DNA of 32,000 nt from Pyrodictium occultum. GTDB lineage: Archaea; Thermoproteota; Thermoprotei_A; Sulfolobales; Pyrodictiaceae. Where the stretch lies: contig NZ_LNTB01000001.1 in the NCBI RefSeq assembly GCF_001462395.1, positions 990,001 through 1,022,000 on the forward strand, in the 5' to 3' direction. Positions within the stretch are counted from its first letter, which is position 1, and each line of letters begins with the position of its first letter. Made by a program: the position numbers and the translations under genes. The notes beneath the pieces were generated by a model that saw only the letters and a program-made list of their open reading frames with translations, ran no database searches and was not told where the DNA came from. This document shows positions 14,118 through 31,023 of this stretch, piece after piece.

Positions 14118-14170
14118 TGGGTAGCCCGCGCCACCGGGGTGGAGCCGCCCCAGCCCAGGGAGCCTCCTAC

Positions 14171-15316: not shown

Positions 15317-15319
15317 GGC

Positions 15320-16264
15320 TCACACCCTCTTCTTGAGCGCGAGCGCCTCTAGCCTTATCACGCCCTCGGGCCGGTACATGAGCACGAGTATGAGTGCTGC
15401 GAGGGCTATAACCGGTGCATAGGCGGTGCTGAGCCCCAGGTACGTGTTGGCCAGGAAGCTCACCACCTGCTCAGCCAGGCCGAGTATTATCCCCGATATA
15501 ATCGAGCCGTAGAACGTGAAGCCGCCCATCGTGGCGGCGGCGAATATCCAGAGGAGCATGAACCAGCCGGTCTCCGGGTCCACGTAGTAGTAGTAGGAGT
15601 AGATGAACCCCGAGAGCCCGGCGAGCCCGCCGCCTATGAGCCAGGCCAGTCTTCTCACATTGTATATGTTGATCCCGGAGACCCTGGCAAGCACGGGGTT
15701 GCTGGCAGTAGCCCTCATGGCCTTACCAGTCCTGGTGCGCGTGAAGAGCCAGTGGAGCGCCAGGGCGAGCACGACAGCGGAGCCTATGGCGAGGAGGTGG
15801 CTCGTCTCAAGCGACACGATACCGCCCATCGTTGCGACCACGCTGCTCCGCTCCGGGAGAGCCACCTGGAGTAGCCCGGCGGTCGAGGCGGAAACAGCTA
15901 GCAGGGTGTAGCGGAGCACGAGGCTCACACCTATGCTCGCGACCAGCAGGTGGAGGGGAGTGGCACCCCTCCTCCAGAGCGGCTTGAAGGCGGCCTCGTC
16001 GCTCACCAGCGCCGCGAGCGCCCCGACGGCCAGGGCCGCAGCCAGCCCTGCTAGGAGGCCCGCCGCGCCGGCGCCGGAGGCTGCTGCGGCCAGGTAGGCG
16101 GCGTAGGCTCCGTAGGTGACGTACTCCGCGTAGGCGAAATTGGGCACCTTGGCGACCCTGAATATGAGGGTGAGGCCGAGCCCCATTAGCCCGTAGAGGC
16201 TGCCGGCGCGGAGCCCGTCAATAACCGCGCCGAGGAGCCCGTAGAGGATGGCCGAGCCAGCCAA
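15320..16264 (-). CDS. livH: Branched-chain amino-acid ABC transporter permease (LivH type)
   Basis: SLYGLMGLGLTLIFRVAKVPNFAYAEY and GKAMRATASNPVLARVSGIN are LivH hallmarks. There is a 3-nt gap to livM. Confidence 0.92.
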   Translation of the reverse strand: MAGSAILYGLLGAVIDGLRAGSLYGLMGLGLTLIFRVAKVPNFAYAEYVTYGAYAAYLAAAASGAGAAGLLAGLAAALAVGALAALVSDEAAFKPLWRRGATPLHLLVASIGVSLVLRYTLLAVSASTAGLLQVALPERSSVVATMGGIVSLETSHLLAIGSAVVLALALHWLFTRTRTGKAMRATASNPVLARVSGINIYNVRRLAWLIGGGLAGLSGFIYSYYYYVDPETGWFMLLWIFAAATMGGFTFYGSIISGIILGLAEQVVSFLANTYLGLSTAYAPVIALAALILVLMYRPEGVIRLEALALKKRV

Positions 16265-16276
16265 CCAGGACCACCC

Positions 16277-16990
16277 CTAGCCATGGTGTATGCCTAGGAA
16301 GAGCTCCTGGAGGTCGCGGCGGGAGAGTATCTCGCGCCCCGTGCCCTCGGCGGCTACCCTGCCGGCTACGAGCACATAGCCCCGGTCCGCCAGCTCCAGG
16401 GCACGGCGGGCATGCTGCTCCACTATGAGTATCGACGCGCCCGCCTCCTCCCTTATCTCTCTCAGCGAGTTGAGCAGCTCTATCGCCACCTTCGGCGCCA
16501 GGCCCGCAGTGGGCTCGTCGAGGAGAAGCAGCCTGGGCCTTGTCATGAGGGCGCGGCCCACGGCCAGCATCTGGCGTTGCCCCCCGCTGAGGGCTCCTGC
16601 CAGCGTTTTACGGAGCCCCCTGAGCACGGGGAATATGTTGAAGACCATCTCCATCGCCTCCCTCACCTTCTCCTCGTCCTGGACGAGGTAGGCCCCCATC
16701 TCCAGGTTCTCTTCCACAGTCAGGTCGGGGAACACGTTATTCGTCTGGGGAACGTAGCCCATGCCCAGCCTGGTCTTAGCCTCGGGGGCCAGCCAGGTGA
16801 CATCACGGCCCTCAAAGAGGACCTGGCCCCCGAACACCCTGGCGACCCCGTAGATGGTCTTCAGCAGCGTGCTCTTGCCGCTACCGTTGGGGCCCACGAG
16901 CGCCACTATCTCCCCTCGATCCACGTAGATGCTGACGCCCTGGACTATGACCATCTTCCCATAGCCGCCCTCGAGATCGCGGGTAGCCAT
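16277..16990 (-). CDS. livF: Branched-chain amino-acid ABC transporter ATP-binding protein (LivF type)
   Basis: Walker A GPNGSGKST, GMGYVPQTNNVFPDLTVEENL, signature LSGGQRQML and Walker B LLLLDEP. The start is ATG 16990, or the upstream GTG at 17002. Confidence 0.93.
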   Translation of the reverse strand: MATRDLEGGYGKMVIVQGVSIYVDRGEIVALVGPNGSGKSTLLKTIYGVARVFGGQVLFEGRDVTWLAPEAKTRLGMGYVPQTNNVFPDLTVEENLEMGAYLVQDEEKVREAMEMVFNIFPVLRGLRKTLAGALSGGQRQMLAVGRALMTRPRLLLLDEPTAGLAPKVAIELLNSLREIREEAGASILIVEQHARRALELADRGYVLVAGRVAAEGTGREILSRRDLQELFLGIHHG

Positions 16991-17007
16991 TACGGCCCTC
17001 ACGGCTC

Positions 17008-17482
17008 GGCACCGCCCTCAGCGGCTGTGGCTATAATGATGGGGAAGTTTAGCTCTACGAAACCCCCACGGTAGAGGAACACCCTGGCCGCCCTCATTAG
17101 CGTGCTCCTCACCCCGAGGATCGCCCTAACCCTGGGCTTCCCGATGTCCAGGTACCTGTACCTGAGCCTCGTCGGCCACTCAGCCTCAACCCCCGTACAA
17201 GTCCATGGGCGGCGGAGGGCTCGGAGCCACTACCTCGATCTCATCGGGCAGTATCTCCCTACCGAGCCCGGCTATCTTGCTCTCAACCATCCTCCCAGTC
17301 ACTTTAACGAAGCACTCCCTGCCAAGCTCTTCGACAACGCTCCACACGTCGTCAGGTGCCACTCCCTTCTTAACGGTTACCTGCTCCTCTCCGTCGAAAG
17401 TTCCCGGGAGTATGAAGGCGATCTTGCCCTTACGCCTCACAGCAGCCACGCGGCCGTAGACTGTTACCTGACCCCCCTTCAG
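17008..17482 (-). pseudogene. aspS: Truncated, frameshifted fragment of archaeal-type aspartyl-tRNA synthetase: N-terminal OB fold plus the start of the catalytic domain
   Basis: Frame 1 (17186-17482) reads LKGGQVTVYGRVAAVRRKGKIAFILPG..EEQVTVKKGVAPDDVW..CFVKVTGRMVESK..REILPDEIEVVAPSPPPPMDLYGG*. A 1-nt frame change at the ggggg-tt run (~17186-17192) continues it as EAEWPTRLRYRYLDIGKPRVRAILGVRSTLMRAARVFLYRGGFVELNFPIIIATAAEGGAEP*. An in-frame stop lies upstream at 17483-17485. The fragment ends inside the conserved EGGAE(LF) motif, 5 nt from the livF ORF. Confidence 0.8.
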
Positions 17483-17517
17483 TCACCACGGCCACCCCGG
17501 CCGCCGGTGGCGTGGGT

Positions 17518-17541
17518 GAGGGTAAATTCGAGGGTAAATTC
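17518..17541. repeat. Perfect 12-bp tandem duplication (gagggtaaattc x2)
   Basis: Read directly from the sequence. It lies in the spacer between the aspS fragment and the divergent methylase gene. Confidence 0.9.
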
Positions 17542-17640
17542 CGATCCACCCTCTGCAAGCCCGGGCAGGCGCTACACGAGTCACACTTGGGCCAGCGCAC
17601 AGAATCATTGCTACATAACACGATTTGAGGAGGAGCCGCT

Positions 17641-18765
17641 ATGGCCATGAAGGTGAACCCGTGGAGCAGGGTGCCTGTGCACAGGATCTACGTCTTCACC
17701 GAGCACGGGCTGACCCCGGGCCTCGTCGAGGCGTTCATGGAGTCTGCTGCTGAGGCCGGGTGCAGGGTTGTGGTGGACCCGTTTGTGGGCAGCGGCGTGG
17801 TGGCCGTGGAGGCTCAGGGCAGGTGCCTGGGCGCGGTGGGGGTGGACGCTAACCCCTGGGCGCTGGTGGTCTCCGCCGCTAAGACTAGGCCCGTGGACCC
17901 CGCCAGGCTCCTGGGCTGGGCCCGCGGGGCCCTCGAGGATGCGGGGGGCCTCGAGCCCCTTATCCCGTCCCCGAGGCTTAGCCGCTATCACCCTAGGGGT
18001 GTCCTCGAGGCGCTGGGGAGGCTCAGGGCCCTGGTGGAGGCCGCCGAGCCGCGGTGGAGGCCCCTCCTCCTAGCGGTCCACGCCTCTGTGGCGGAGAGGT
18101 ATAGTCTTCTCCGCCGCAGCCCGGCCCCCAGGCTCCGCCGCTCAGCCCCCAGGGCGGCGGCCGGGGACGTCTACAGGGAGTTCATGCGGGTGCTGGCCGG
18201 GGCGGCTGCGGACCTGGCGGGGCACAGCTTCTGCGGCCACGTCGACCTCGTGTGGGCGGACTCCACCCTGTGGATGCCTGGGAGGGTGTGCGGGGTGCTC
18301 ACAAGCCCGCCCTTCGCCAACAACATAGACTATATACGGCACTCCATGCTGGCGCTTCTGTGGGCGGGGCTCGCCGGGGGCAGCAGGGACCTCGGCTGGC
18401 TCAGGGGCATCCAGGCCCCCGGCTGCGAGGCCGCCGCCAGGGCGTGGAGGCCCGAGACGGAGGACCCGGAGGCCCGGAGGCTCGCGGAGGCGATAGGGGG
18501 CCGGAGGGCCCGCGGCTACAGGCGCTTCCTCCTACAGTACCTGCACTCCATGGAGAGGCACCTGGCGCTGCTGGCCGAGGCGCTGGAGTGGCAGGCATGG
18601 TACACCATAGGCGACAGCATACTCGGTGGAGCGTACATACCCACCCACAGGCTCCTGGCCCGCGCCGCCGAGAGGCACGGCCTCCGGGCAGCCCTAGAGC
18701 CCCTCGAGCCCAGGTGGAGGCCTGGTAGGAGCCTCTACCTCCTCAGGCTCGAGGCCAGGCGCTAG
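17641..18765 (+). CDS. Stand-alone DNA methyltransferase (N6-adenine/N4-cytosine class). Motif order is I...IV.
   Basis: Motif I is VVDPFVGSG (17776-17796), followed by GVDANPWA. Motif IV is TSPPFANNIDY (SPPF at 18304-18315). The SD-like gaggagg lies 6 nt before the ATG. G+C is very high; for example, 18121-18180 is 49/60 G+C. Confidence 0.8.
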   Translation: MAMKVNPWSRVPVHRIYVFTEHGLTPGLVEAFMESAAEAGCRVVVDPFVGSGVVAVEAQGRCLGAVGVDANPWALVVSAAKTRPVDPARLLGWARGALEDAGGLEPLIPSPRLSRYHPRGVLEALGRLRALVEAAEPRWRPLLLAVHASVAERYSLLRRSPAPRLRRSAPRAAAGDVYREFMRVLAGAAADLAGHSFCGHVDLVWADSTLWMPGRVCGVLTSPPFANNIDYIRHSMLALLWAGLAGGSRDLGWLRGIQAPGCEAAARAWRPETEDPEARRLAEAIGGRRARGYRRFLLQYLHSMERHLALLAEALEWQAWYTIGDSILGGAYIPTHRLLARAAERHGLRAALEPLEPRWRPGRSLYLLRLEARR

Positions 18766-18871: not shown

Positions 18872-21800
18872 CTAGCCGGCTTCTAGCCTTATCTCCACGT
18901 GCCTTAGGCGTAGTGGGTACGTTGCAAGGAGCCTACTGTTGAGGATCTCCGCCAGATCTTTGAGGCTTAGAGGCTTTGAGCCCGTTTTCCTGGCGAACTC
19001 TACATCCACAGTTATCTCTGTTATTTCTCCAAGCCCTAACGCGAAGTTTATGAGCTTGTTGAGGAGCTCGTGGGTACCGCCCTTGGCACTTATCAACACG
19101 CTGGATCCGCTGGACTCAGACTTCACGAGCGCATCTACATGGCTACTGTAGTTGTAGTCTTTACCCTCAAGCTCCCGCATAGCCTCTAGGAAGGCCTTAA
19201 TGCCTGATATGGTCCTCCGTTCCACGGGGCCCGTATACTCCAGGCGTATACTGATCTCCTCTACAACCCGGTCGAGCGCGCCACTCCTTAGGATCTCCTC
19301 GCGGAGCTGGTAGGGGGTTAGGTCTTCCACTTCCAGGCGCAGATTCACCGGGGACGGTGGGGGCTTAGGTTCGGGGGGCTCCTCCCCGCCTTCACCGGTC
19401 TCCCCGCCTTCCCTGCCCTCGCACTGCCAAGTCTTCTCTTCAGGGTTCCATACCGGGTTCCTGCAGCCCTCCGGAGGCTTGGGCACGCACTTCAGCCCTT
19501 CCCCGCTCTCGAGTACACTACAGGCTTCCCGGGCCTCGGGAGAGCTGCACGGGGCTAGGGTTACGCCTTCCTGGGCAAGGGGCGGCCTCACCATGCACTT
19601 GGGGCCGGAGCTGGTTAGGGCCACTAGCCTGCCGCTCTCAACTAGATCCGCTATGCGCTCGACGACCTTGTTCTCTACCTCTAGGAGTATAACACTCGAG
19701 GGATCCTCCGTGAAGGCGGCTACCACCTCGTCGAGGCTTAAGGGGCGTCGTAAGGCACTGTATCGCCTGAGTATGACGTCCCTCATTAGGTATTCCGGGC
19801 TCACATCCTTCACGAGCTTACCCACGCCCAATAGGGCCTCCTCGACGGACTTGCAGAGGCCCTCCCGAGCCGTTGCTGAAGAGCTTTTTAAGGATATGCC
19901 ACCGAAGACTATGGAGCCGTCCGGCCTGGCGTCCAGCGGGTAGTATAGCTTCGAGTAGAGGGCTGAAATGTCGGAGCGCAGCTCTTTAACTAACTTATCC
20001 CTCATACGGTTAAGCTCGTCCACGTCTTCACGGTCTAAGCCGTAGTACTGCATTTGCTCCGGGCTTAAGAGCCTCGATATCGCTGTAAGCCTTGCTATGG
20101 TTTCGATCAGTGTTTCGTAGAGCCTCTCGTCGGGGATTAGGTAGAGCACAGTGTTCCGGTGACGCCGGTATACCCCGCCGGCCTGGCTGTACGTTGAGAA
20201 ACGCTGTAGCAACTCATCCAGCTTTGACCCGCCAGCCGCGACGTCGGGATCCTCCGGGTCTAGCAGGACGAGCTTTACGCGCGTGGAATCCTCTATATCG
20301 CCGGGGTGCCGGGGCCACACTACAACTTTACACCACCGAACCGGCTTGGCGATCCTATCCAGCTCGCTCCTCAGCTTGTCCCTAACGTACTCCCTACTTT
20401 TCTTGATTATCTCGTTTGCCAGGCGCTTAACTAGGGCGTACACGTTTGCCCGGGTCTTAACCATGTAGAGGGGCTCGCCGTGGCGAGTGCTTCTGTGGAT
20501 GTGTGCAGCGCTCTCTACGAGATAGTCTAGAACCTGCCTAGTGAGCTGCGGGGTGACGCCCCTGATAGGCGTCGCCGAGCCTAGCGCAACCTCCTCGGCG
20601 CTCGAGGGCTTCCCAGCGGCGCTCCTAACCAGTACTGCAGAGTAGACTAGCGACGCTATGGGGGGCATCCCCTCCCGCGTGTGGTGCTCATCGGCCTCCT
20701 CCACTACCTCAATGTCGTGGGAGACCGCTCTTCTGAGGCTTCTCAAGTCCTCGTTTCTAGAGAGCAGCTCGTCTAATATCTCCCTCTTAGTAGCGTCTAC
20801 GTCGCCTAGTAGGACTAAGTCGTAGGCGTCCCCCTTACGTAGCCTCCAATGGAGGGTCCAGGCCATTAGCCTGAGGATATCCCTTGTGCCCTGAAACTCT
20901 GGGATCTCCGCCAGCTCCTTGTAGAGGACGTCTACCAGGTAGGGGTGGAAGGGGTAGCTCTTCACAATCCTCGTTTCATACTCCGTCCTGGCGGCCTCAG
21001 ACGGGAAGAAGGCGCTCTCTTTAGAGTAGAAGTCGGCGTATTCACGCGCGACGGAGCGCGCTACGTCAGGGTCAACCTCTCTTAGAAGAGCGGCTTTTAG
21101 GACGGCCGCGGCGTCGCGGTAGCCCACTATCGACGACGTAGAGGCCACTCTCTTGACGCTAGAGAGTAGCCCCAAAATCCTCTTAGTCTCCTCGACGTAG
21201 CCATACTGCTGGGGGGTTGCTACGGCTAGCACTGCGTAATTAGAATTGGCTACGGCTACTGCGAGGTTCTGGAGGAACATTTGCAGCCCGTCGGCCTCAC
21301 TCCTAATGCTTTCGTCTCTAGAAAGCTCGAGGTTGCGGAGGTACATAGCTAGCTCGTCGATGAGTATCACGGGTCTAACGCCGGCCTCCTCGATTGCGGC
21401 TAGCAGCCTTCCTATCTCCTCGTGGCCTGGCACTAGTTCGCGGTAGCGGCGGATCCTCTGCAGAGCGCTGGCGCCCAGGCCTGCCGAGCGTGCTAGCTCC
21501 TCGAGTATGAAGGTCCACGCGTTTGGGGCTCCATACCGCTCCCTAAGCGTTATAGGGTCGACCGCAGAGCCGTCGAAAACTGCCACCGCGGAGCGTATGT
21601 TGACTGGGCCCTCTACCCCCACCTCTCTAAGGAACTCTCTCAGCCTGCGGCTCTTCAGGGCTTCGGAGAACCTAGCGGCGAGGTGGTAAATGGCTAGTAG
21701 AGTGTGGGACTTACCCCCGCCAAATCCTGTGTGGAGGAGTACGACCGGCTCGTAAGGGCCCCCGCGGAGGAGCCTCTTTAGAACGGTCCCGAGGACCTGC

Positions 21801-21991
21801 CTTAAGCCCTCCGAGAAGTAAGTGCGGTCAAAGAACTTAACAGGGTCCCGGTAGCGCTCATCTACGCATTCGTACCCCCCGCTGGAGCAGCCGTAGTGGA
21901 CGTACCATAGCTGCACGACGAAGCTGGCGCCGGTTATTCGCCCCTCACGTATCTCCTCAAACGCAACCCAGCCGGCACGGCCTGAAGACAC
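18872..21991 (-). CDS. DUF499-type (BrxC/PglY-like) P-loop ATPase, 1039 aa
   Basis: YRDPVKFFDRTYFSEGLRQVLGTVLKRL...VVLLHTGFGGGKSHTLLAIYHL matches my memory of the DUF499 N-terminal consensus. Walker A GFGGGKSH is at 21704-21727 and Walker B is VILIDELAMYL. The GTG start lies 15 nt after the upstream methylase stop, preceded by gggggtgg. Confidence 0.85.
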   Translation of the reverse strand: MSSGRAGWVAFEEIREGRITGASFVVQLWYVHYGCSSGGYECVDERYRDPVKFFDRTYFSEGLRQVLGTVLKRLLRGGPYEPVVLLHTGFGGGKSHTLLAIYHLAARFSEALKSRRLREFLREVGVEGPVNIRSAVAVFDGSAVDPITLRERYGAPNAWTFILEELARSAGLGASALQRIRRYRELVPGHEEIGRLLAAIEEAGVRPVILIDELAMYLRNLELSRDESIRSEADGLQMFLQNLAVAVANSNYAVLAVATPQQYGYVEETKRILGLLSSVKRVASTSSIVGYRDAAAVLKAALLREVDPDVARSVAREYADFYSKESAFFPSEAARTEYETRIVKSYPFHPYLVDVLYKELAEIPEFQGTRDILRLMAWTLHWRLRKGDAYDLVLLGDVDATKREILDELLSRNEDLRSLRRAVSHDIEVVEEADEHHTREGMPPIASLVYSAVLVRSAAGKPSSAEEVALGSATPIRGVTPQLTRQVLDYLVESAAHIHRSTRHGEPLYMVKTRANVYALVKRLANEIIKKSREYVRDKLRSELDRIAKPVRWCKVVVWPRHPGDIEDSTRVKLVLLDPEDPDVAAGGSKLDELLQRFSTYSQAGGVYRRHRNTVLYLIPDERLYETLIETIARLTAISRLLSPEQMQYYGLDREDVDELNRMRDKLVKELRSDISALYSKLYYPLDARPDGSIVFGGISLKSSSATAREGLCKSVEEALLGVGKLVKDVSPEYLMRDVILRRYSALRRPLSLDEVVAAFTEDPSSVILLEVENKVVERIADLVESGRLVALTSSGPKCMVRPPLAQEGVTLAPCSSPEAREACSVLESGEGLKCVPKPPEGCRNPVWNPEEKTWQCEGREGGETGEGGEEPPEPKPPPSPVNLRLEVEDLTPYQLREEILRSGALDRVVEEISIRLEYTGPVERRTISGIKAFLEAMRELEGKDYNYSSHVDALVKSESSGSSVLISAKGGTHELLNKLINFALGLGEITEITVDVEFARKTGSKPLSLKDLAEILNSRLLATYPLRLRHVEIRLEAG

Positions 21992-22006
21992 TACGAGCCA
22001 CCCCCG

Positions 22007-24652
22007 CTAACGGTCGTTTCTCATGTAGTCAAGGAGGCTGCGCTGCCCGGGAGCGCTTGAAGCCCCGCGGCCGTAGGGCTTGCCGCGTATACACACCTCA
22101 TATATACCCTGGAGAGCCTTCTTCTCATCTCCGCTGCTGTCCTCCAGCAGGACCTCTACCAGCCTGCAGACGCTAGCGCTGAGCCCGTAGCCCGCCTCCC
22201 TGAGGGCTTCTACCGCGCTGTCAACGCCGGAGGCTAGGAACCTTCTAACAGCTACTGCGAGGGCCTCGACTAGCGAGTCAGGCTTGATTGGGAGGCTGAT
22301 CTCGTTTAAGCTTCTGATGGAGTACACCTTCCTCCCGCCCGAGGCCCTGGATCCCCGGGTGAACCTCGCGATGAACTCCTCGTGGCTGTACCCGGTCGCG
22401 TACCCCAGCCTCCTCAAGTCGTCGTACTCGGGCTCGCCGTGTACGATGCGCGCCAGGAAGTACATCATTGTAACCTTGTCAACCTCGGCTTTGAGCACCT
22501 CATTAGCTATAACGTCGGACGCTAGGCTGCTGGCTTCATCTATAATGCTCTTAACGCTGACCGGCCGCCCGTCAGGGGTGAGCAGGGGCCAGCAGCCGCC
22601 GGCTAGCTTGAATGCGGCCCCGACGCCGGCCATGAACGCGTCCACGGGCCCAAGGCCTAAGCGTAGCACGTTCCTAACCGCCTCTTCAACAGCGCTTCTC
22701 AACTTATGCTGAAACCTCGCGTCGAAGAAGCACCTGCTGCCCTTCTCTCTCGGGACTGCCCCTATTATCAGCATAGTCCTAGCCGCAGCCTTGCCTACTA
22801 TATGCTGGCTCTTGGGCTGCTCCGAGGCAACCCCCCATACCCCGACAGGCTTCCACCCAGCCTCGAGGATAGCCTTGAACATAGCGTAGAGGCCTTCACT
22901 GCTGCGGTGAGCGTACATAACGGCAAGCCTCTTAGCCCCGAGCTCCCGGACAATGCTTAAAGCGTCTGTGAGCCTCTCCTCGAACCACGCGCCATCCTTA
23001 CCCTGGGCACGGTTAACAACAATCTCGCCATCCTTAGGCGTAACATCCCAGGTGAAGGCCTCAGGGTACAGGTCGCCGATGCTCCGCTTGAGCCACACAT
23101 AGAAGAAGTCGCTAAGCTCACCGTACTGAACGTTATCATAGTAGGGCGGGTCAGCGACAACATAGTCAACCCTATCGACCCCGGCATAGGTGGCTGCATC
23201 GGAGGCATCGCCCAGGACAACCTCGATACCTGAATTAGAGCCCTCCAAAAGGCTCACGATACGCTCGAGAGCCCTGACAACACCCACACGGCCAAAGAAG
23301 GCCCAGCTAAGCAGATCGTTTCGGCTTTTCCCGGGCACTATATCGCCCTCCCCGAAGTCGTCGCCAAACTGGTAAGTGTGACGGCTGAAAGTGTGACCTA
23401 TAGATCCCCTACCGTAGGGATCCCATATCGTTATGGCCGAGTTGTAGTCGAGCAGCCTCCCATGCCCGATGGCCAGGTATGTTGTAACAGCCCTGGCGTA
23501 CTCCCTGTCGTACCCTTCTCGGAGCATTTCGCTATACGCCTCCCTGATGTACTTAACCATGGCTGCATGGAGTAGGAGCTGCCGCGCGTTAAACAGCTTG
23601 TAGAATCTATCCATGCCGCGCAGTAGTACTTCTCGGGTTTTCACGCCTTCCGGTATGGCCTCTATGGGTATGAGGTCCTCTGCTACTAGCTCGCCCCAGT
23701 GGTTTCGGAGGTGCTCCTCCGCCCTCCTGTAGGCTTCTATAATTTCAGGGGTGGGCTCCACGTACGTGCCGTCCTCGAGCTTTACGGCCGCCAGCACCGC
23801 GGGGTGGTGGCCGTAGAGCCCCTCCTCCTCCCACTTCTTCATTGCCTCCCTGTACTGCCTCTGCAGCTCTTTTGAGTCGAGTATGGACCGGGGGCATTTG
23901 AGCCGTTTCCTGTGTATTGTGGAGTATTGCTCCTTGGCTTTGTTTACATCGCTGACGCTCACGATTCTGAGTACCGGGTCTCCTTTGCTGTCGAATCCCT
24001 CCAGCTTCAAGGCGATTTTTCTGTTTCTGGACAGTATTGGATTGGCTAGGCTGGGCATTCTGACTCCTTCTGGGCACGTGTAGACCCGCACCCACACGTA
24101 GCTGGTCGGCCTCCCTTTGGGGTGCGGGGGGTAGAACTGCTCGAGCTCCCTCCTCACATTGCCGGCCAGCCACTCCGCCCAGCGCCTGACATCCTCTACC
24201 AGCTTTTTCCCGTACCTTAGGGGGTACTCTAGTGTCGCCTTGAGGATTATGTAGGCTACTGGGTTGTACTCCACGGCTACGACCTTCTTGAAGCCCATGC
24301 GTAGGGCCTCGAATGCTATGCTGCCTCCCCCGGAGAACAGGTCTAGGAGAACGGAGTCCCCGGCGCGGCTGTGCCTGAACACCCAGTCCCTGTTCACGGC
24401 ATAGTTGTACGCGGGTCTCGGCAGGTTAGGCGTGAGCCTCACGGCGTTCAGGAATTCTGCCACGAAGCTTCTTGAAGGGGGCCCGTTAACGTCGACTGCC
24501 AGGGCTGCTATTGTAGCCCTGCTAGCTGCCAGGGGCCTCCGGGCCCACCAGAGGTGGAGGTAGAAGGACGGAGGAAAGAGTGCAGCTCTCTCCCTCTGCG
24601 ATTCTCTGCTAGCGTTTTCCGTGGGGAAGTAATACGCTATAAGAGGCTCCAA
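22007..24652 (-). CDS. DUF1156-type DNA methyltransferase (putative N6-adenine), 881 aa
   Basis: The N-terminal DUF1156 signature FYLHLWWARRPLAASRA is at 24524-24556. Motif I is DLFSGGG (24323-24343), followed by VAVEYNPVA. Motif IV is VVADPPYYDNVQYGELSDFFYVWLK (DPPY at 23141-23152). The start is TTG. Confidence 0.9.
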   Translation of the reverse strand: MEPLIAYYFPTENASRESQRERAALFPPSFYLHLWWARRPLAASRATIAALAVDVNGPPSRSFVAEFLNAVRLTPNLPRPAYNYAVNRDWVFRHSRAGDSVLLDLFSGGGSIAFEALRMGFKKVVAVEYNPVAYIILKATLEYPLRYGKKLVEDVRRWAEWLAGNVRRELEQFYPPHPKGRPTSYVWVRVYTCPEGVRMPSLANPILSRNRKIALKLEGFDSKGDPVLRIVSVSDVNKAKEQYSTIHRKRLKCPRSILDSKELQRQYREAMKKWEEEGLYGHHPAVLAAVKLEDGTYVEPTPEIIEAYRRAEEHLRNHWGELVAEDLIPIEAIPEGVKTREVLLRGMDRFYKLFNARQLLLHAAMVKYIREAYSEMLREGYDREYARAVTTYLAIGHGRLLDYNSAITIWDPYGRGSIGHTFSRHTYQFGDDFGEGDIVPGKSRNDLLSWAFFGRVGVVRALERIVSLLEGSNSGIEVVLGDASDAATYAGVDRVDYVVADPPYYDNVQYGELSDFFYVWLKRSIGDLYPEAFTWDVTPKDGEIVVNRAQGKDGAWFEERLTDALSIVRELGAKRLAVMYAHRSSEGLYAMFKAILEAGWKPVGVWGVASEQPKSQHIVGKAAARTMLIIGAVPREKGSRCFFDARFQHKLRSAVEEAVRNVLRLGLGPVDAFMAGVGAAFKLAGGCWPLLTPDGRPVSVKSIIDEASSLASDVIANEVLKAEVDKVTMMYFLARIVHGEPEYDDLRRLGYATGYSHEEFIARFTRGSRASGGRKVYSIRSLNEISLPIKPDSLVEALAVAVRRFLASGVDSAVEALREAGYGLSASVCRLVEVLLEDSSGDEKKALQGIYEVCIRGKPYGRGASSAPGQRSLLDYMRNDR

Positions 24653-24732
24653 GCCCCAGCGTCACCCTCAGGGCTCCCGGGCGCACTTAGGAGCTATAAT
24701 AGGGGGTTTGATATACTGTATTTAAGGATTCG
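24653..24732. promoter_or_regulatory. Divergent promoter region with two TATA-like boxes and a 9-bp palindrome
   Basis: ctataata is at 24694-24701 and tatttaag at 24719-24726. The palindrome atactgtat is at 24713-21. This is the only intergenic DNA between the methylase-ATPase operon and the nuclease-helicase operon. Confidence 0.5.
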
Positions 24733-26628
24733 TTGGTTGATCTGTTAAATGCCGGCTACTCTGGGGGCGAAGATTCATTGCTCATTGAAAAGTATATAGA
24801 GTCCGCCACGAAACGGCCTGGTTGCTCGGATTACGCGAGCAGGCTCCTAGACGCCACAAATCACATCGTTAGGGCTAAGAGTGTTGCAACGGCCGCCGCT
24901 CGATGCGTGTTTATGGCGCGCCTCGCGGAGACCCTGGGGATCCGGGGCTTCTACCACTCCGTCCTGCCGGGTAAGGGTGAGGTTATCCACTTAGCTCTGG
25001 CTCTCGCTTTCCCGGAAGTATTCCGGGAAAGCGTTAGGGGCGGAAAAGTCGACTTTGAGCATAATGCTGAGCGAGCTCTGGAGGCCTTGAAGGCCAACGG
25101 AGTCCTCGACTCCGGGCGGCTTGGAATAGGGGGCGAGGATGAGGTTGTTGGGATGACGGCTGAGCTGGCTAGGAGTGGCGTGGAATTCGCCAGGAAAGCG
25201 TTTGAAGCCCTGGCCGGGGATGAGGCTGAGGAGGCCCTGTCCCGTAGCCGCGTTATTGTTGAGCAGCACCTGATAAGCTATAGGCTCCATGTCTGGGCGG
25301 TTCCCGATGTTATTGTCGAGGATCCCGTGGGCCGCTACGCGGCTGTAATAGAGTGGAAAACGTACGCACCCGACCCCTCTAAAGCCCCCAATGTGGATAG
25401 AGCGGACTTAGCTCAGGCCTACGTCTATGCAATGGTTGAAGCTGAGAGGCTCGGGCTGATTAGAGATTATCACCGAGAACCTTGGAGGGCGTTCGATGAC
25501 TACGTCCACGCGGTCCTGGGCAGGGAGTTCCAGGGCAGTGGGGCTCGGGTAATACCTGGCATCGTGAGGCCAAGCCCCACGGGCAAGGCCTCGAGAATTG
25601 TAGACATCCACCCCCTCCTTTGCCGCGATGAGGATAAAAAGAAGAATAGATGCGACTACAGCGAGTTGAAAAAACTTCTTGCACGCATTGTACTGGCTGC
25701 CGAGCACTTAACTCTCTCAGTAACCGATCCGAGGCGCCACTTGAAAAACGCGGGTAACGTGGAGGCTTTGTGCAGCGTTCGAACTAAGGGCGGCATGCGC
25801 CCGGTCTTTAGGCGTGTGCCCGACCCATTTAGTTATGGCGGGATAGAGACGAGGATGCCCATGGGCAACCCTACGCGCACCCCATTGAAGTGGCCCTGCC
25901 TGGTATGCCCCGATAACGTGAGGGAGGCGTGCAGCCTCTACGTCATGAAAGGAGGCAACCTCTACACCCCCGATTTCGCTAAATTCTTCAAGGTAATCAA
26001 TAAGGAGGCTTGGAAGGCTCGCTTCGCCATATACTCGTACCGCGAGAATGCTTTGGCCCCGTATAAGAGCCTCAGAGAGCTGGCCTTACACTATGGCATC
26101 AGCACCAGGGTTCTATCAGAGGGCTCTAGCATCTACAGGTTAGACCTGTTCGACGAGGCATACGTCGACGGGGATGAGCTAGTTTTAACTAGGCGTCCGC
26201 TTCGCTGGGAGATCGAGAAGAACCACCTGTTCACGCTCCGCGAGGGGAAGCCTGTAGCCGTGTTCCTGAACGAGGAAAACGTGCGTGACCCGCTCCTCCG
26301 GATTAGCTTCCACGGAACTGTAAGCAGCGTAAGCTATAACACGGAGAGGGATATGGTCGAGGTTAGGGTTGCGCCGGCTAACAAGCTCTCCAGGATTTAC
26401 TCTATGATATTCGAGAGGTATTATAACGAATATCAGCAAGCATTCTATAACGTTGTAGCGCTTGAGGTTAACGTTGAACTGACACAGCTGGAGCTTCTCG
26501 GTGTGACGGGCTGGGAACTGGGGACTGCCGTGAAGGGGGCTAAGGCCCTAGCCAAGGCTGGGAGCGGCGGGGAGGACCTGGATGATGAGGACAAGCTGGC
26601 CCTACTCTTCGGGGGAGTGAAAGTGTAG
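24733..26628 (+). CDS. Cas4/RecB-like PD-(D/E)xK nuclease domain protein with a Cys cluster and a C-terminal beta-rich domain, 631 aa (Dna2 N-terminal-half-like)
   Basis: The ordered motifs are C58 (AARCVFMARL); GKGEVIH; VPD192VIVED...AVIE207WK209 (25306-25359); Q228AYVY232 (from 25414); and C389-x2-C392-x7-C400 (25897-25932). The exact start is uncertain, because TTG 24733 lies only 7 nt after one TATA-like box. The CDS call is firm, but the function is inferred from motifs. Confidence 0.65.
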   Translation: MVDLLNAGYSGGEDSLLIEKYIESATKRPGCSDYASRLLDATNHIVRAKSVATAAARCVFMARLAETLGIRGFYHSVLPGKGEVIHLALALAFPEVFRESVRGGKVDFEHNAERALEALKANGVLDSGRLGIGGEDEVVGMTAELARSGVEFARKAFEALAGDEAEEALSRSRVIVEQHLISYRLHVWAVPDVIVEDPVGRYAAVIEWKTYAPDPSKAPNVDRADLAQAYVYAMVEAERLGLIRDYHREPWRAFDDYVHAVLGREFQGSGARVIPGIVRPSPTGKASRIVDIHPLLCRDEDKKKNRCDYSELKKLLARIVLAAEHLTLSVTDPRRHLKNAGNVEALCSVRTKGGMRPVFRRVPDPFSYGGIETRMPMGNPTRTPLKWPCLVCPDNVREACSLYVMKGGNLYTPDFAKFFKVINKEAWKARFAIYSYRENALAPYKSLRELALHYGISTRVLSEGSSIYRLDLFDEAYVDGDELVLTRRPLRWEIEKNHLFTLREGKPVAVFLNEENVRDPLLRISFHGTVSSVSYNTERDMVEVRVAPANKLSRIYSMIFERYYNEYQQAFYNVVALEVNVELTQLELLGVTGWELGTAVKGAKALAKAGSGGEDLDDEDKLALLFGGVKV

Positions 26629-26649
26629 CTAGACGTGGGGTGAAGGTTA

Positions 26650-28236
26650 GTGCGCTATAACGTATGCGAGTTGCTCGCGAATGCGCTTAAAACGACGCGT
26701 GCGATAGGCGTTGATGCACTTAATAGTAGCCAGAGGAGGGCAGTCAGTATTATCGAGGAAATCTTCAGAGGTAGGGCCAAGGCGCCTTTAGCGGGGATTC
26801 AGGGGCCCCCGGGCACGGGGAAGACGAGTGTGGTCGAGGCATTCGCGAAGGACTACGTGGCTGACTGGATCGGGGATCACGTTGGCGAGGTAATAATTTA
26901 CGTGGCTCCCACAAACCACCTGGCGGCCCAGGCGTTTGAGCGTGTTGCCTCAGCTCTCCTAGCCCGCGGCTACACGTTAAGAGATATAATTAGCATGGTT
27001 AGAGTTTACGGGTCCAAGATAACGGTCAAGGATTGCGGCAAGGTGCTGAAGTCTCTGACCGGTAAGAGTGGAGGGCTCAGCGAGGAATTGCTAAAGGATA
27101 TTACTTACGGCCCGGTGGATCCCCACATTGTTAGGATAGTATTTACTACCGAGTACCAGAGGGTTAGCGGCAGATTCACCTCTAAACCCGAGCGAGTCCA
27201 CCTGATAGTCGACGAGGCCAGCAAGACGCCATTCTATAGGCCCTTCATAACCATAGTTGACAGTATAATGAGGTACAAGGACTACGCGGCGTCAATGTCC
27301 GTTCTAGGGGATCCGGAGCAGGCTATAACGATCCCCGAAGTCTTTAGGTTGCGCTCTGTTGACCTGCTCATGGACAAGGTCATGCGGTTGCTAAAGAAAA
27401 ACGATTTAATGAAGAGCAACTTCGTAATGCTGGATACAACCTACAGACTGCCGGGTCCCAGCGAGAAGCCGATAAGCCATGGATTCTATGATGACAAGCT
27501 ACAAGCTTTTATGCCTGCTAAGCAGAGATTGAAAGATTTAAGAGACCTATTTATAGATTTAGCAGGTAAGGTAAGATCCAAGCTTGAAATAGAGGCCTCC
27601 TGGGGTTCGCGGATGGATAGACTATTCGGCGCAATATACAATGCGGCGTCTTCAGGAGTCCCGCTTGTTGTTGTTGAAACCCCTAAATTTAGGGGAGAGT
27701 CTTACGCTTCAACCTATGACGCGGAGAGGGCAAGGCTCGCGTTGCACGCATCACTGATATTCGGGTTGTACGCTAGACTCGCCAGGGAAACAGGTGAATA
27801 CCCGATACCATCCATTATGGCTATAGCGCCGTACAGTGATATTGAGGCTAACATAGCATTCAACTTCAAGAGGCTCTATGGCAACATAGCGGAGCCCCCG
27901 ATGTCGGCAACCGTTCACGCGGTGATAGGTGGAGAGGCAGATATAGTAGTGTCGGTTCTTGGAAAGGAGTACGACACGGCGCGCGGGGGATATGTTGGGA
28001 GCGATGACTTGTACAGTACGGTATACTACAACGAGCCTCAAGTCTTGAATGTGCAGCTGAGCAGGCACTACAGGATGATGGTGGTAATAGGGTCCACGAG
28101 ACAGCTGGCGTCTGCGCATTCCTACAGGACCCGGGGACGGGGTGTAAGGGAGGTAGGGAAGATTGCACGGACAGCTAGTATGATGAAGAGGCTCGTGGAT
28201 GACGGTAAAGCCATCGAAATACCGATTGAATATTAA
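26650..28236 (+). CDS. SF1B helicase, Upf1/Dna2-like family, 528 aa
   Basis: Motifs are LNSSQRRAV; I GPPGTGKT (26803-26826); Ia VAPTNHLAAQAFERV; II LIVDEASK; III VLGDPEQ; IV LDTTYRLPGP; V ATVHAVIGGEADIVVSV; and VI LNVQLSRHYRMMVVIG. The GTG start is 21 nt after the nuclease stop and preceded by ggggtgaagg. This gene has the lowest G+C in the window; for example, 27481-27540 is 22/60 G+C. Confidence 0.88.
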   Translation: MRYNVCELLANALKTTRAIGVDALNSSQRRAVSIIEEIFRGRAKAPLAGIQGPPGTGKTSVVEAFAKDYVADWIGDHVGEVIIYVAPTNHLAAQAFERVASALLARGYTLRDIISMVRVYGSKITVKDCGKVLKSLTGKSGGLSEELLKDITYGPVDPHIVRIVFTTEYQRVSGRFTSKPERVHLIVDEASKTPFYRPFITIVDSIMRYKDYAASMSVLGDPEQAITIPEVFRLRSVDLLMDKVMRLLKKNDLMKSNFVMLDTTYRLPGPSEKPISHGFYDDKLQAFMPAKQRLKDLRDLFIDLAGKVRSKLEIEASWGSRMDRLFGAIYNAASSGVPLVVVETPKFRGESYASTYDAERARLALHASLIFGLYARLARETGEYPIPSIMAIAPYSDIEANIAFNFKRLYGNIAEPPMSATVHAVIGGEADIVVSVLGKEYDTARGGYVGSDDLYSTVYYNEPQVLNVQLSRHYRMMVVIGSTRQLASAHSYRTRGRGVREVGKIARTASMMKRLVDDGKAIEIPIEY

Positions 28237-28567
28237 TTATCGGTTGTCCGGAAACACGCCCTGAAGGGGGTAGGGTGGAGTATTGGTAACTCTCTTCAGC
28301 TGGGGCTAAGATGGGCCTCCTATTCTGGATTAAGCTACTTTAACTTTGCCAGGAGGTACTCGGGCCTTGCGGAGTGGCCGTGTTTGGGTGGAATGTACTC
28401 CCTTGACGCCCTTGAGTTTGGGTTTGTAGCGGTAGACGCCTGGCCTTGCTGCTTCGTTGTAAACCCTTCTCTATTACCAGGCTCTAGGATCCCGTTCCTG
28501 AGCCTGTACCTCCCCTCTGCCACGGGCTTGTGCTAGCACCGTCGAGCCTGCCAAAGCAACCAACCCC
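28237..28567. other. Non-coding or degraded junction between the helicase gene and the livG stop
   Basis: It contains only a 62-aa ORF of implausible composition. Two minus-strand frames give short protein-like stretches (AEGRYRLRNGILEPG; VYNEAARPGVYRYKPKLKGVKGVH) broken by stops. Confidence 0.4.
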
Positions 28568-29338
28568 CTAGACCGAGCCTAGGTAGGCGTCGAGCACGCG
28601 CGGGTCCTCGGCCACCTTCTCCGGCGGCCCCTCGGTGAGGACGCGGCCCTCGTGCATGACTATGACGCGTTCTACGTGGTTGAAGAGCACCTCGAGCCTA
28701 TGCTCTATAACGAATATTGTCAAGCCCTCCCGGTTGAGCCTCTCGAGTACCTTGAACAGGTCCTGGGCCAGCCTAGGCGCTACGCCGGCGGTCGGCTCGT
28801 CGAGGAGGAGGACGCGGGCCTCACCCATCAACGCCCTCGATATATCTGTAAGCTTCATCTGGCCGCCGCTAAGCTCCGAGGCGCGGTTAAGCGCCACCCT
28901 AGCCAGCGAGAGGCGGTGCAGCACATCCACAACCCGCTTAGCCAGGCTACTACGCTCCCAGCTCAGCCACTCGCTCCTCCTCAGCAGCGCTGCAAGAGGG
29001 CCGGAGCCCTTCCTATCACGTGCAGCCGTGGCGTCATTCTCCACAACGGTCATCCTGTGCCAGAGGCGGGGCACCTGGAAGCCCCGGACCAGGCCCAGCC
29101 GGTAGAGCTCATGGGGCGGGAGCCCGGTGACTTTCTCGCCGTAGAGGTATACGTCGCCCTTATCCGGGCGATAAATCCCCGAGATCACGTTGAAGAGCGT
29201 GGTCTTACCGCTGCCATTGGGCCCTATCAGCCCGACAAACTCACCATCCCGGATGGATATAGAGACGCCGTCCAGCGCTCGGATGCCGCCGAACCGTTTG
29301 TGGAGATCAACGGTCCTGAGCGCCTCGACACCCGCCAA
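28568..29338 (-). CDS. livG: Branched-chain amino-acid ABC transporter ATP-binding protein (LivG type)
   Basis: Walker A GPNGSGKTT, GLVRGFQVPRLWHRMTVVEN, signature LSGGQMKL, Walker B LLLDEP and a LivG-type C-terminus DPRVLDAYLG. The TTG start is preceded by gggaggt. Confidence 0.93.
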   Translation of the reverse strand: MAGVEALRTVDLHKRFGGIRALDGVSISIRDGEFVGLIGPNGSGKTTLFNVISGIYRPDKGDVYLYGEKVTGLPPHELYRLGLVRGFQVPRLWHRMTVVENDATAARDRKGSGPLAALLRRSEWLSWERSSLAKRVVDVLHRLSLARVALNRASELSGGQMKLTDISRALMGEARVLLLDEPTAGVAPRLAQDLFKVLERLNREGLTIFVIEHRLEVLFNHVERVIVMHEGRVLTEGPPEKVAEDPRVLDAYLGSV

Positions 29339-29616
29339 CTCCGTGGTACCTCCCAGGGACTGCTATGCCACGAGCCCCTTTGCAGCGACGCAAAACCCCG
29401 GGGGAGCCGCCGGGGGCTCCTCCGGGGGATCACAGCATGAGCCAGGGCAGGGGGCGGAGCACCGGGGGGATGTAAGAGGGCTCAGCCGGAGCCAGGGGCG
29501 GTGGGGATCCGGGGACACGCACCAGTATCGGTGTAAATAAGGGCTTCCCGTCACGGGCGCTAAGCTGACGAGCAGGACGCTGGGAAGAAAGGGAAGGCCT
29601 AAAGAGACAATTGGCT

Positions 29617-29638
29617 GGCAGGTGGAAAAAGGCCTGCC
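29617..29638 (-). promoter_or_regulatory. Stem-loop (ggcagg-N10-cctgcc) immediately downstream of the SBP gene stop
   Basis: A 6-bp GC stem whose minus-strand loop contains TTTTT. It begins 9 nt after the SBP stop codon and lies inside a 308-bp intra-operon spacer. Confidence 0.3.
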
Positions 29639-29646
29639 GGGGGCCT

Positions 29647-31023
29647 TCAAGCCGTGGGCTTCTGATACCACTCAGCGCTGTCGGTGGAGCCGTGCCAGAC
29701 ACCTATCTCCACGAACTTGCCGTCCTTCACGGCGAGTATCGAGTAGTCTGCTAGGGCCGCGTCACCGTTCTTGTCCAGCATCTTGTGGCCCGTAGCGCCC
29801 ATGAAGTGGAACGCCACGGTCGGCAGTACCGCCTTGATAGCCCTGCCGTCGTACGTGCCCGCTGTCAGCACGCTAAGCATGGCTATCCATGTAGCGTCGT
29901 AGGTGTAGTAGGCGTAGGTGGTTGGCGCCTCACCGTACTTCTGCTTATACAGCTCCTCGAAGTGCTTGGCCACCGGGTTCTTCGGTATGGCGGGCGCCGT
30001 TGCTATGAAGTGCACCCCCTCCAGGAACTTCGCTATCTCGGGCTTCTCGAGGAACGTCTTGCGGGCCATGCTGTCGGAGCCGAACCACTGCACCCGGCTC
30101 AGTATCGGCGTCTTGGCGGCCTGCTCCAGTATCTTCGTGCCATCGTTGTCGAATGCTATTATCAGTACGGCGGTATGCTCATCGGCGCCGAACTGCTCCA
30201 CCTTGACTGCGAGCTGGTTGACCTCGTTGGTTAGATCGGGCTTATCGGGCTGGTAGAGTATCTCCTCCACTGTGCCGCCGAGCTTCTCGAAGGTCTGCTT
30301 CACCAGCTCTGCGAGGCCGCGGCCGTAGTCATCGTTGCGAGCTATTATTACCAGCTTCGTGTAGCCCAGGCTGTGTATCAGCTTGGCTAGCACGGGGCCC
30401 TGGACGACATCGGGTGGTGCTGCGCGGAACACATAGTCATCGGGGAAGGCGGCGGCCTTACCAGTGCTGCTGGGGCTTATTACCACTATGTGGAGCTGGT
30501 TGGCTATAGGCATCACTGCCCTGGTCTCGCTCGTGGATAGGGGGCCTACGACTATCTGTATACCCTCGCTGGCGAACCTCTTTATCACGTTCACGGCCTC
30601 CTGGGGGTCAGCCTTGGTGTCCTCGTGTATTGGCTTGAACCTGTAGGGTGAGCCGGCCTGCTCCAGGAGCTTGTTCATCTCCTCTATCGCCAGCAGGGCT
30701 GCCTTGAGCCTCCTGGGGCCGTCCACCGCGTAGCCGCCGCTAACAGCTATGGCGAGGCCTATGGGGATCTCCTTGGGGAGGCCCTTAGCGGTGCCGGTGG
30801 CCTGCATAGTGCTCGTCGTGTGCGTCACAGTGGCCGTGGTGGTGGGCTGCGCCGGCTGCGTTGCAGTCTGTGTTACAGTAGCAGCCGGTGCTGGTGACGG
30901 TGTTCCTGTGGATGGATGCCCGCCCGATGTGGCTGCCAGGTAGGCCGCGATGGCCACTATTATTACAGCTATTGCTATACCCGCTACAGCTATACCCGCT
31001 ACACGTGCACCCGTGCCGGCCAC
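29647..31023 (-). CDS. livJ: Branched-chain amino-acid ABC transporter substrate-binding protein (LivJ/K family), membrane-anchored with a Thr-rich linker
   Basis: The N-terminal TM helix (IAVAGIAIAVIIVAIAAYLA) is followed by a Thr/Pro/Ala-rich linker (TVTQTATQPAQPTTTATVTHTTST). A type I periplasmic binding fold follows (IPIGLAIAVSGGYA...VGPLSTSET...). The start is GTG. Confidence 0.9.
   Translation of the reverse strand: MAGTGARVAGIAVAGIAIAVIIVAIAAYLAATSGGHPSTGTPSPAPAATVTQTATQPAQPTTTATVTHTTSTMQATGTAKGLPKEIPIGLAIAVSGGYAVDGPRRLKAALLAIEEMNKLLEQAGSPYRFKPIHEDTKADPQEAVNVIKRFASEGIQIVVGPLSTSETRAVMPIANQLHIVVISPSSTGKAAAFPDDYVFRAAPPDVVQGPVLAKLIHSLGYTKLVIIARNDDYGRGLAELVKQTFEKLGGTVEEILYQPDKPDLTNEVNQLAVKVEQFGADEHTAVLIIAFDNDGTKILEQAAKTPILSRVQWFGSDSMARKTFLEKPEIAKFLEGVHFIATAPAIPKNPVAKHFEELYKQKYGEAPTTYAYYTYDATWIAMLSVLTAGTYDGRAIKAVLPTVAFHFMGATGHKMLDKNGDAALADYSILAVKDGKFVEIGVWHGSTDSAEWYQKPTA
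30974..31003. repeat. Perfect 15-bp tandem duplication (gctatacccgctaca x2) inside the SBP membrane anchor
   Basis: Read directly from the sequence. It encodes the duplicated VAGIA-VAGIA in the TM segment. Confidence 0.9.

Follow-up and report, generated by a model that had tools for sequence, protein, structure and literature searches.

What can act as the restriction arm of a DUF499-centred defence system from which the usual Swi2/Snf2 helicase is missing? This question is raised by an island in the genome of the archaeon Pyrodictium occultum, which lies in a stretch of 32,000 nucleotides (NCBI RefSeq assembly GCF_001462395.1, contig NZ_LNTB01000001.1, positions 990,001 to 1,022,000 of the forward strand) that we call the window and in which all P. 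occultum coordinates are numbered. The island codes for a DUF1156-type methylase and a DUF499 ATPase, which diverge from a Cas4-like nuclease (NUC) and a superfamily 1B (SF1B) helicase (HEL), and for a second, smaller methyltransferase (MT2). According to our analyses, this cassette represents a variant, not described before, of the DUF499-centred BREX-related (BR) systems, also known as Hma, with an SF1B nuclease-helicase in place of Snf2. Its components are as follows:

17641–18765, plus strand: MT2, a DNA methyltransferase of 374 amino acids, with motifs DPFVGSG and, further on, SPPF, in alpha-type order.
18872–21991, minus strand: DUF499 AAA+/ORC-Cdc6-like ATPase (HmaC-like) of 1039 amino acids, Walker A GFGGGKSHT, Walker B VILIDE.
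22007–24652, minus strand: DUF1156-type N6-adenine DNA methyltransferase (HmaB-like) of 881 amino acids, motif I FSGGGS, motif IV DPPY.
24653–24777, no strand: divergent intergenic region with the TATA-like elements tataata and atttaagg, a presumed bidirectional promoter.
24733–26628, plus strand: NUC, a Cas4-like PD-(D/E)XK nuclease protein of 631 amino acids (616 if it starts at 24778), Pfam PDDEXK_1.
26650–28236, plus strand: HEL, an Upf1-like SF1B helicase core of 528 amino acids, with motifs GPPGTGKT, VDEAS, GDPEQ, TVHAVIGGE and NVQLSR.

An initial annotation, made from the sequence alone, had described a cassette of four genes. All four are present as open reading frames (ORFs) at these coordinates and their proposed identities hold, but the fifth gene, MT2 (17641–18765), had been overlooked. 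Pfam and PADLOC profiles recover both members of the leftward pair, which had been read as a DUF1156 methylase and a DUF499/BrxC-like ATPase. The ATPase, 100% identical to P. occultum CF15_05335, matches Pfam DUF499 at 6.6e-32 and PADLOC HmaC at 1.8e-68 over residues 12–736; the methylase matches Pfam DUF1156 at 4.1e-11, together with methyltransferase models, and PADLOC HmaB at 3.2e-52. Against the NCBIfam model DUF499_antiphage the ATPase scores 88.8 bits, far under the cut-off of 1200, and the score against DUF1156_antiphage is likewise far under its cut-off. MT2 is recognized by PADLOC MTase_II models (down to 6.9e-12), with no Pfam match at 1e-3 and no match among PDB sequences. In the rightward pair, the claim of a Cas4/RecB-like nuclease is borne out by a match of NUC to Pfam PDDEXK_1 (PF12705) above its cut-off (2e-6, 28.4 bits, cut-off 22) and by conserved core motifs, and that of an Upf1-like SF1B helicase by matches of HEL to AAA_11 (32.3 bits) and AAA_12 (27.9 bits), each above its cut-off of 27, and also to AAA_19. 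All four proteins have intact catalytic motifs. HEL is 100% identical to P. occultum CF15_05350.

No described system has this set of genes. Hma is the PADLOC name for the methylase-ATPase system (PMC8565338), which Rakesh and Krishnan (NAR 2026) have reclassified as DUF499-centred BREX-related systems of types 1–3 (PMC12839542). Every BR system has a Swi2/Snf2 enzyme as its helicase: in type 1 this enzyme carries a fused PD-(D/E)XK nuclease, in type 2 a fused HKD nuclease, and in type 3 it is accompanied by PglZ (PMC12839542). The BR catalogue of auxiliary effectors mentions neither SF1 helicases nor RecB, UvrD or Upf1 (PMC12839542). Pyrodictium, Staphylothermus, Hyperthermus and Aeropyrum are not among the entries in the part of the BR supplement available to us (PMC12839542). 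Earlier descriptions of DUF499 systems report the same Snf2-based operon (PMC7641849), and Cas4 phylogenomics has recorded UvrD-Cas4 fusions and Cas4-like genes linked to COG1205, not a pairing of the NUC-HEL type (PMC5704561). Our literature search for DUF499 or DUF1156 combined with a Cas4-like or SF1 effector found none, in line with the earlier suspicion that even the four-gene combination was new. The absence of the usual partners was also correctly noted: Pfam and PADLOC searches of the island ORFs reveal no Snf2, DUF3780, PglZ or BrxL, none of the ORFs matches SNF2, Helicase_C or HmaA, and the sole helicase is the SF1B enzyme. PADLOC would detect just the HmaB and HmaC components of the cassette.

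The closest described relative is Hma, or Type-1 BR, with which the cassette shares an adjacent and co-oriented pair of DUF499 (HmaC) and DUF1156 (HmaB) genes, a location in defence islands and a restriction-modification-like logic with a PD-(D/E)XK nuclease and a helicase as effector. By contrast, it has no Swi2/Snf2 superfamily 2 (SF2) helicase, its effector is split over the NUC and HEL genes, it includes an additional small methyltransferase, and its DUF499 protein belongs to a separate clade. With Type-2 and Type-3 BR and BREX it has in common the core of a DUF499/BrxC-like ATPase and a large N6-methylase (PMC12839542), whereas the island encodes no DUF3780, HKD-Snf2, PglZ, iSTAND/BrxB or BrxL. 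Because Snf2, DUF3780, PglZ and BrxL are all lacking, the island fails one defining feature of each named BR subtype while sharing the other two. Nhi and Mokosh also use an Upf1-like SF1 helicase with a nuclease in anti-virus defence, but they are not coupled to a methylase or DUF499, and the nuclease of Mokosh is of the phospholipase D (PLD) type, which the island does not encode. The similarity of HEL to the PADLOC model MkoA (4e-17) is confined to the RecA2 region (residues 259–514 against model positions 888–1099), and that to Nhi (2.8e-5) to residues 420–480, that is, to generic helicase motifs.

The cassette is not peculiar to P. occultum. Relatives were gathered by scanning a set of genomes, one for each species, with a NUC profile and metagenomes with a wider one, and by exact-protein look-ups of relatives of HEL and of DUF499; genes were then mapped in the loci (numbered with the prefix L) by tblastn, and a close clade was defined by at least 31% nuclease identity. 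This provided 19 distinct informative loci, all from hyperthermophilic archaea, with L007 and L008 counted as one; L022, whose contig ends at NUC, is uninformative. A DUF1156 gene, together with DUF499 where the contig extends far enough, lies beside NUC-HEL in 18 of them (L001–L006, L007+L008, L009, L014, L016, L017, L019–L021, L056, L057, L060 and L061), an association beyond chance. Their hosts are Pyrodictiaceae, Hyperthermus, Aeropyrum, Acidilobaceae, other Desulfurococcales, Staphylothermus hellenicus and an Archaeoglobales metagenome-assembled genome (MAG). HEL directly follows NUC in every locus long enough to show both, and in most the two genes overlap or are at most 21 nt apart. The DUF1156 orthologues of the cassette loci are 48–72% identical, no SNF2 helicase was seen in these loci, and identity to the window proteins co-varies across all five genes (Spearman rho 0.77–0.95).

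This linkage persists in spite of rearrangement, there being at least three gene orders in addition to that of the window. In L061, an AAA_15/21 ATPase gene and an ORF of 252 amino acids are inserted between the cassette halves. The chromosomal sites also differ: the Liv operon in the window, the interval between EF-1alpha and rpo genes in L003 and L006, and the vicinity of a Piwi gene in L005. In the latter, a Pyrodictiaceae MAG, a gene for a Piwi-domain (prokaryotic Argonaute-like) protein of 936 amino acids and an AAA_21 ATPase gene adjoin the cassette (12507–16784), and therefore indicate a defence island. At the one close-clade locus that lacks DUF1156 and DUF499, L018 (3879–14575), the neighbours of NUC-HEL-MT2 are an Lhr helicase and an Eco57I/PglX-like N6-methylase of 1030 amino acids, which occupies the DUF1156 position of the Staphylothermus-type arrangement.

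MT2 takes part in the same conservation. It directly follows HEL in most loci that extend that far, and orthologues with 41–66% identity occupy this position in L003–L007, L009, L013, L016, L018–L021, L024, L056, L057, L060 and L061. L001 and L002 have no MT2 after HEL, and L001 carries an unrelated N6_N4 methylase about 2.3 kb downstream of HEL. In the window, MT2 lies not in its usual place after HEL but at the other end of the cassette, with its orientation kept, so that the gene order amounts to a circular permutation of the common one; an origin by circular permutation is unsupported, as the spacer DNA of the window has no similarity to the spacers of L004 and L005. Beside the MT2 gene of L013 (4638–7718) lies a gene for an EVE-domain protein, a reader of modified bases, followed by two integrase fragments.

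The DUF499 proteins provide a complementary view of the cassette. Those most similar to the window protein form a clade of 19 proteins with at least 33% identity and at least 415 bits, after which the next match falls to 183 bits. Two proteins at the edge of this clade (33% identity) lie in full five-gene cassettes, whereas the first outgroup examined with informative context, L058, is a canonical operon of DUF499, DUF1156 and SNF2 helicase genes; the boundary of the clade thus coincides with the switch to a Snf2 helicase partner. The DUF499 proteins of Staphylothermus and L061 belong to another lineage, whose closest relatives among the collected proteins fall outside the cassette clade, and they too are joined to NUC-HEL-MT2, for which reason the NUC-HEL association seems to have arisen, or to have been kept, in two DUF499 lineages. 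On a short genome-assembly contig, L059 (653–7395), a HEPN_Swt1-DUF499 gene is followed by an ORF of 439 amino acids and by a PIF1/AAA_30/UvrD_C_2 SF1 helicase gene, and this could be another DUF499 system with a non-Snf2 helicase.

NUC and HEL form a small, previously undescribed nuclease-helicase family. When 1.84 billion representative proteins were searched exhaustively with its profile, NUC had only 84 representatives at E ≤ 1e-3, and 56 at the stricter limit of E ≤ 1e-30. It is matched by no PADLOC or NCBIfam model, has no relatives among IMG/VR viral contigs, PLSDB plasmids or GenBank phages, and its profile produced just one spurious match (0.16) against PDB sequences. Its catalytic residues are intact: the nuclease core (D192, E207-x-K209 and Q228-x3-Y232) and six cysteines (C31, C58, C347 and C389-x2-C392-x7-C400) are invariant in an alignment of 17 sequences. 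The core positions remain so across 12 divergent sequences, and core residues and cysteines alike on addition of a 25%-identical Sulfolobales member. C58 and the CxxCx7C triad are located in the two low-confidence segments of an otherwise reasonable AlphaFold2 model (mean predicted local distance difference test score, pLDDT, 70; predicted template modelling score, pTM, 0.74), which is compatible with, but does not prove, an Fe-S staple that depends on its cofactor, of the kind known from Cas4, AddB and Dna2. The C-terminal part of NUC (about 413–610), modelled separately with a pLDDT of 75, is predicted to fold into helices, a beta-barrel and a long helix. Foldseek relates this region to senataxin/Sen1 structures with E values from 1.8e-4 to 4.4e-3 and probabilities up to 0.99, the best folds being SETX 8ftm (1.8e-4) and Sen1 8ram (1.2e-3), and to Aquarius (E 7.3e-3, probability 0.69). 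HEL, too, has a conserved catalytic core, with SF1 motifs I, Ia, II, III, V and VI invariant in 30 sequences. As a single sequence it has no match in PDB, whereas its profile recovers Upf1 (4e-13), NAM7, Sen1, SETX, Aquarius, IGHMBP2 and Dda. The core begins about 20 residues ahead of motif I, leaving HEL without an N-terminal accessory domain.

Read jointly, NUC and then HEL present the order nuclease, predicted stalk/barrel, RecA1 and RecA2, which is the domain order of Dna2 and had led to the proposal of a split Dna2-like nuclease-helicase. The domain order stands, but homology to Dna2 is not apparent by sequence or fold: the barrel is closest to those of senataxin, Sen1 and Aquarius, and Dna2 was not recovered among the 60 PDB profile matches listed for HEL, in the PDB sequence search with NUC, or in the top 50 Foldseek matches of both NUC models. 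We therefore accept 'Dna2-like' as an architectural analogy only. It covers a PD-(D/E)XK nuclease with an Fe-S-compatible cysteine pattern, a predicted stalk/beta-barrel and the order of SF1B RecA1 and RecA2 domains; Dna2, however, is one polypeptide acting in replication and repair, whereas NUC-HEL is made of two polypeptides in a defence setting, and no fused NUC-HEL protein was seen.

In the window, the cassette interrupts an operon for a branched-chain amino-acid ABC transporter, separating LivF/H/M (14171–17002, minus strand) from LivG/LivK (28568–31023, minus strand), so that the earlier idea of an operon-splitting insertion was right. The genes that bound it are:

16277–17002, minus strand: LivF-like ABC ATPase (Pfam ABC_tran 8.9e-35; GC 0.647), left boundary of the insertion, given as context.
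28568–29338, minus strand: LivG-like ABC ATPase (Pfam ABC_tran 9e-30, and BCA_ABC_TP_C; GC 0.633), right boundary, given as context.

As had also been observed, the DUF499, DUF1156, NUC and HEL genes have a guanine plus cytosine (GC) content of 0.51–0.585, below that of these flanking genes (0.633–0.647). The cassette was acquired horizontally, as an island. MT2 differs from the other cassette genes in having a GC content of 0.714, against 63–65% in the flanks. Between the genes, a 15-nt gap with gggggtgg (methylase to ATPase) and a 21-nt gap with ggtga (nuclease to helicase) are both present as first reported. The divergent region had been described as an 80-bp AT-rich promoter; the 80-bp spacer exists, but its overall GC content is 54%, and AT-richness is confined to the 43 bp on its right-hand side. 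Alignment to homologues indicates that NUC likely starts at the TTG at 24778 (MLIEK...), in which case the spacer is 125 bp long; its GC content is 0.52–0.54 overall, with an AT-rich part only at 24690–24732 (GC 0.37). Judging from its TATA-like elements, which are also present in the divergent spacers of homologous loci (59–170 bp), 24653–24777 may work as a bidirectional promoter. The island borders are non-coding (17003–17640, 638 bp; 28237–28567, 331 bp), apart from an unannotated ORF of 87 amino acids on the minus strand (17186–17449) in the left one; another ORF there (17102–17650, plus strand, 182 amino acids) is of low complexity, has no matches and is probably not a gene. We found no convincing direct or inverted repeats and no integrase at the borders, and searches of the window gave neither a tRNA gene nor an Rfam family. 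Upstream of the Liv operon, an HD-domain protein (11551–13113) matches the PADLOC dGTPase model weakly (2e-7) and an ORF of 273 amino acids (9688–10509) has a weak match to the methyltransferase mad2 (5e-6); these may be further defence-related genes.

How might the five proteins work together? We consider it fairly probable that the island is one integrated five-gene restriction-modification-like defence system, in which a NUC-HEL heterodimer replaces the Snf2 helicase-nuclease. The DUF1156 methylase, with a presumed specificity for N6-adenine, and MT2 would mark host DNA, while the DUF499 ORC/Cdc6-like ATPase would scan DNA and sense, or license attack on, DNA that is unmarked. Restriction would then fall to the putative NUC-HEL complex. 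An effector role for a PD-(D/E)XK nuclease and a helicase is suggested by the precedent of Hma, where the only experiment identified the Snf2-fused PD-(D/E)XK nuclease as the effector (PMC11232893). The C-terminus of NUC would supply a stalk/barrel accessory domain to HEL, a predicted 5'-3' SF1B motor core, and the complex would travel along the DNA of an invader and degrade it in the fashion of Dna2, which may protect the cell from viruses. The working model of the initial annotation, in which methylation marks self DNA and the effector resects non-self DNA, is likewise an inference.

More distant relatives of NUC-HEL have other partners. The initial annotation tied the nuclease-helicase to DUF1156 and DUF499; this holds for the close clade, but the pair is portable, being found without these genes in L018 and with DndC/SspD-like genes elsewhere. 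In a distant clade, which shows 24–29% identity and is represented by Sulfurisphaera ohwakuensis and many hot-spring contigs, genes for DUF1156, DUF499 and MT2 are absent from the neighbourhood of NUC-HEL. The Sulfolobales NUC-HEL genes adjoin phosphoadenosine phosphosulfate (PAPS)-reductase genes that are DndC-like (1.5e-36) and SspD-like (7e-18), often together with an AAA_5 ATPase gene. We observed this context in L011 (7039–12855, Sulfurisphaera ohwakuensis), L025, L027–L031, L034–L042, L044–L046, L053 and L054, often with a protein of 401 amino acids besides the McrB-like AAA_5 ATPase. These Sulfolobales loci may be an undescribed phosphorothioation-linked restriction module; like Dnd and Ssp they would combine modification with restriction, although we saw none of the restriction genes DndFGH, SspE and Pbe in them and the window itself has no PAPS-reductase genes.

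In four loci (L034 7384–12837, L035 8143–13650, L043 14–5455 and L048 126–3509), an ORF of 556–576 amino acids lies directly upstream of NUC-HEL in the same orientation, forming an apparent three-gene operon. Those of L034 and L043 match a KAP-family P-loop NTPase model, and this NTPase could be the counterpart of the DUF499 ATPase. In the Staphylothermus locus L009 (19346–21608), the DUF499 gene is followed by an ORF of 147 amino acids and then by an AAA_5 ATPase 32% identical to the AAA_5 protein of the Sulfurisphaera PAPS-reductase locus (L011 14720–17600); a McrB-like component is therefore common to both contexts. A third context without an obvious modification gene was seen in L052 (2287–11193) and L051, where an ORF of 158 amino acids overlaps the start of NUC, genes for a PLDc_2+PIN protein, a 288-amino-acid ORF product and a zf-BED protein lie downstream, and an AAA_15/21 ATPase gene and a TnpB-like gene lie upstream.

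Its position beside DndC- and SspD-like genes in Sulfolobales implies that NUC-HEL accompanies DNA-modification modules in general and, since the modification genes that it repeatedly adjoins differ, the simplest reading is that it serves as the restriction arm of self/non-self discrimination based on modification. More tentatively, NUC-HEL could be a portable restriction motor of split Dna2-like make-up that has gone unrecognized in hyperthermophilic archaea and plugs into chemically different self-marking modules, with NUC giving HEL its missing 1B stalk/barrel in trans. These modules would be, on the one hand, N6-methyladenine/N4-methylcytosine methylation with DUF499 in Desulfurococcales, Pyrodictiaceae and Archaeoglobales and, on the other hand, DndC/SspD-type phosphorothioation with KAP or AAA_5 NTPases in Sulfolobales. 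If the 1B stalk/barrel is supplied in trans by NUC, motor activity would need the assembly of both proteins.

Other explanations account for part of these data. The neighbourhoods might hold two separate systems, NUC-HEL-MT2 being a self-contained ATP-dependent restriction-modification system and DUF1156-DUF499 an independent pair, either modification-only or a degenerate Hma. L018 is a genuine exception, carrying NUC-HEL-MT2 without DUF1156 and DUF499, and therefore the trio may be self-sufficient; the Sulfolobales NUC-HEL has wholly different partners; and the two halves of the cassette are separable, vary in order and orientation and can have other genes between them, which also fits two co-selected systems. 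These facts weigh against a single integrated system, as do several features of the evidence itself. The sample is small and most loci come from MAGs or metagenomes, the co-variation among the five genes is due in part to the phylogeny of the organisms, and its n is inflated by two duplicate contigs. In addition, the stalk/barrel fold matches of NUC are of low TM (0.25–0.29), and the full-length NUC model found nothing in PDB at E ≤ 1e-3 by Foldseek, with no Cas4, AddB or Dna2 in the top 50, leaving the nuclease domain without fold-level support. Nevertheless, two separate systems appear to us rather doubtful. None of these loci provides the DUF1156-DUF499 pair with a nuclease or helicase of its own, the cassette DUF499 clade is seen beside NUC-HEL only and ends where the partner switches to Snf2, the association with NUC-HEL recurs independently in a second DUF499/DUF1156 lineage, and the linkage has been kept through rearrangements in 18 of the 19 loci.

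The remaining explanations change the role of the nuclease-helicase rather than its partners. An Fe-S PD-(D/E)XK nuclease combined with an SF1 helicase is the architecture typical of the Dna2, AddAB and AdnAB repair enzymes and, as the motifs of HEL are intact, NUC-HEL might be a housekeeping machine for DNA repair or end resection, an archaeal analogue of Dna2 or AddAB, that lies near methylases incidentally. This is very improbable for a pair so sparsely distributed (84 representatives in 1.84e9 proteins), which in the window lies within a low-GC operon-splitting island and elsewhere occurs in variable contexts that include Piwi, AAA_15/21 ATPases, PLD/PIN nucleases and TnpB; moreover, the pair has a DNA-modification gene as its neighbour in the majority of informative loci, with exceptions that include L043, L051 and L052. 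NUC-HEL might instead be modification-dependent (type IV-like) or abortive, attacking foreign-modified DNA or, upon infection, host DNA, with the methylases acting otherwise, for example as antitoxins. The EVE gene beside the cassette of L013 and the McrB-like AAA_5 genes of some loci point in this direction, and EVE genes are reported with Snf2-type DUF499 systems, for which a toxin-antitoxin-like reading was proposed (PMC7641849). However, EVE and AAA_5 genes occur in a minority of loci only, the island of the window has no reader domain, and the co-inheritance of two methyltransferases with an effector is a classic signature of self-protection, making a modification-dependent or abortive role unlikely too.

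The integrated five-gene system that we favour has implications beyond P. occultum. DUF499-centred BR (Hma) systems occur widely, and the subtypes described so far are all based on Snf2; the cassette reveals that their methylase-ATPase half, which would do the sensing and marking, can pair with an entirely different effector, and this helps to define which parts are interchangeable and what the job of DUF499 is. NUC-HEL represents a new effector family with few members, unannotated and lacking solved relatives, paired with methylation and phosphorothioation genes, that offers a tractable handle on how the restriction effectors of archaea read self marks. As a two-subunit nuclease-helicase from an organism living above 100 °C, it may also be of biochemical and structural interest as a thermostable enzyme.

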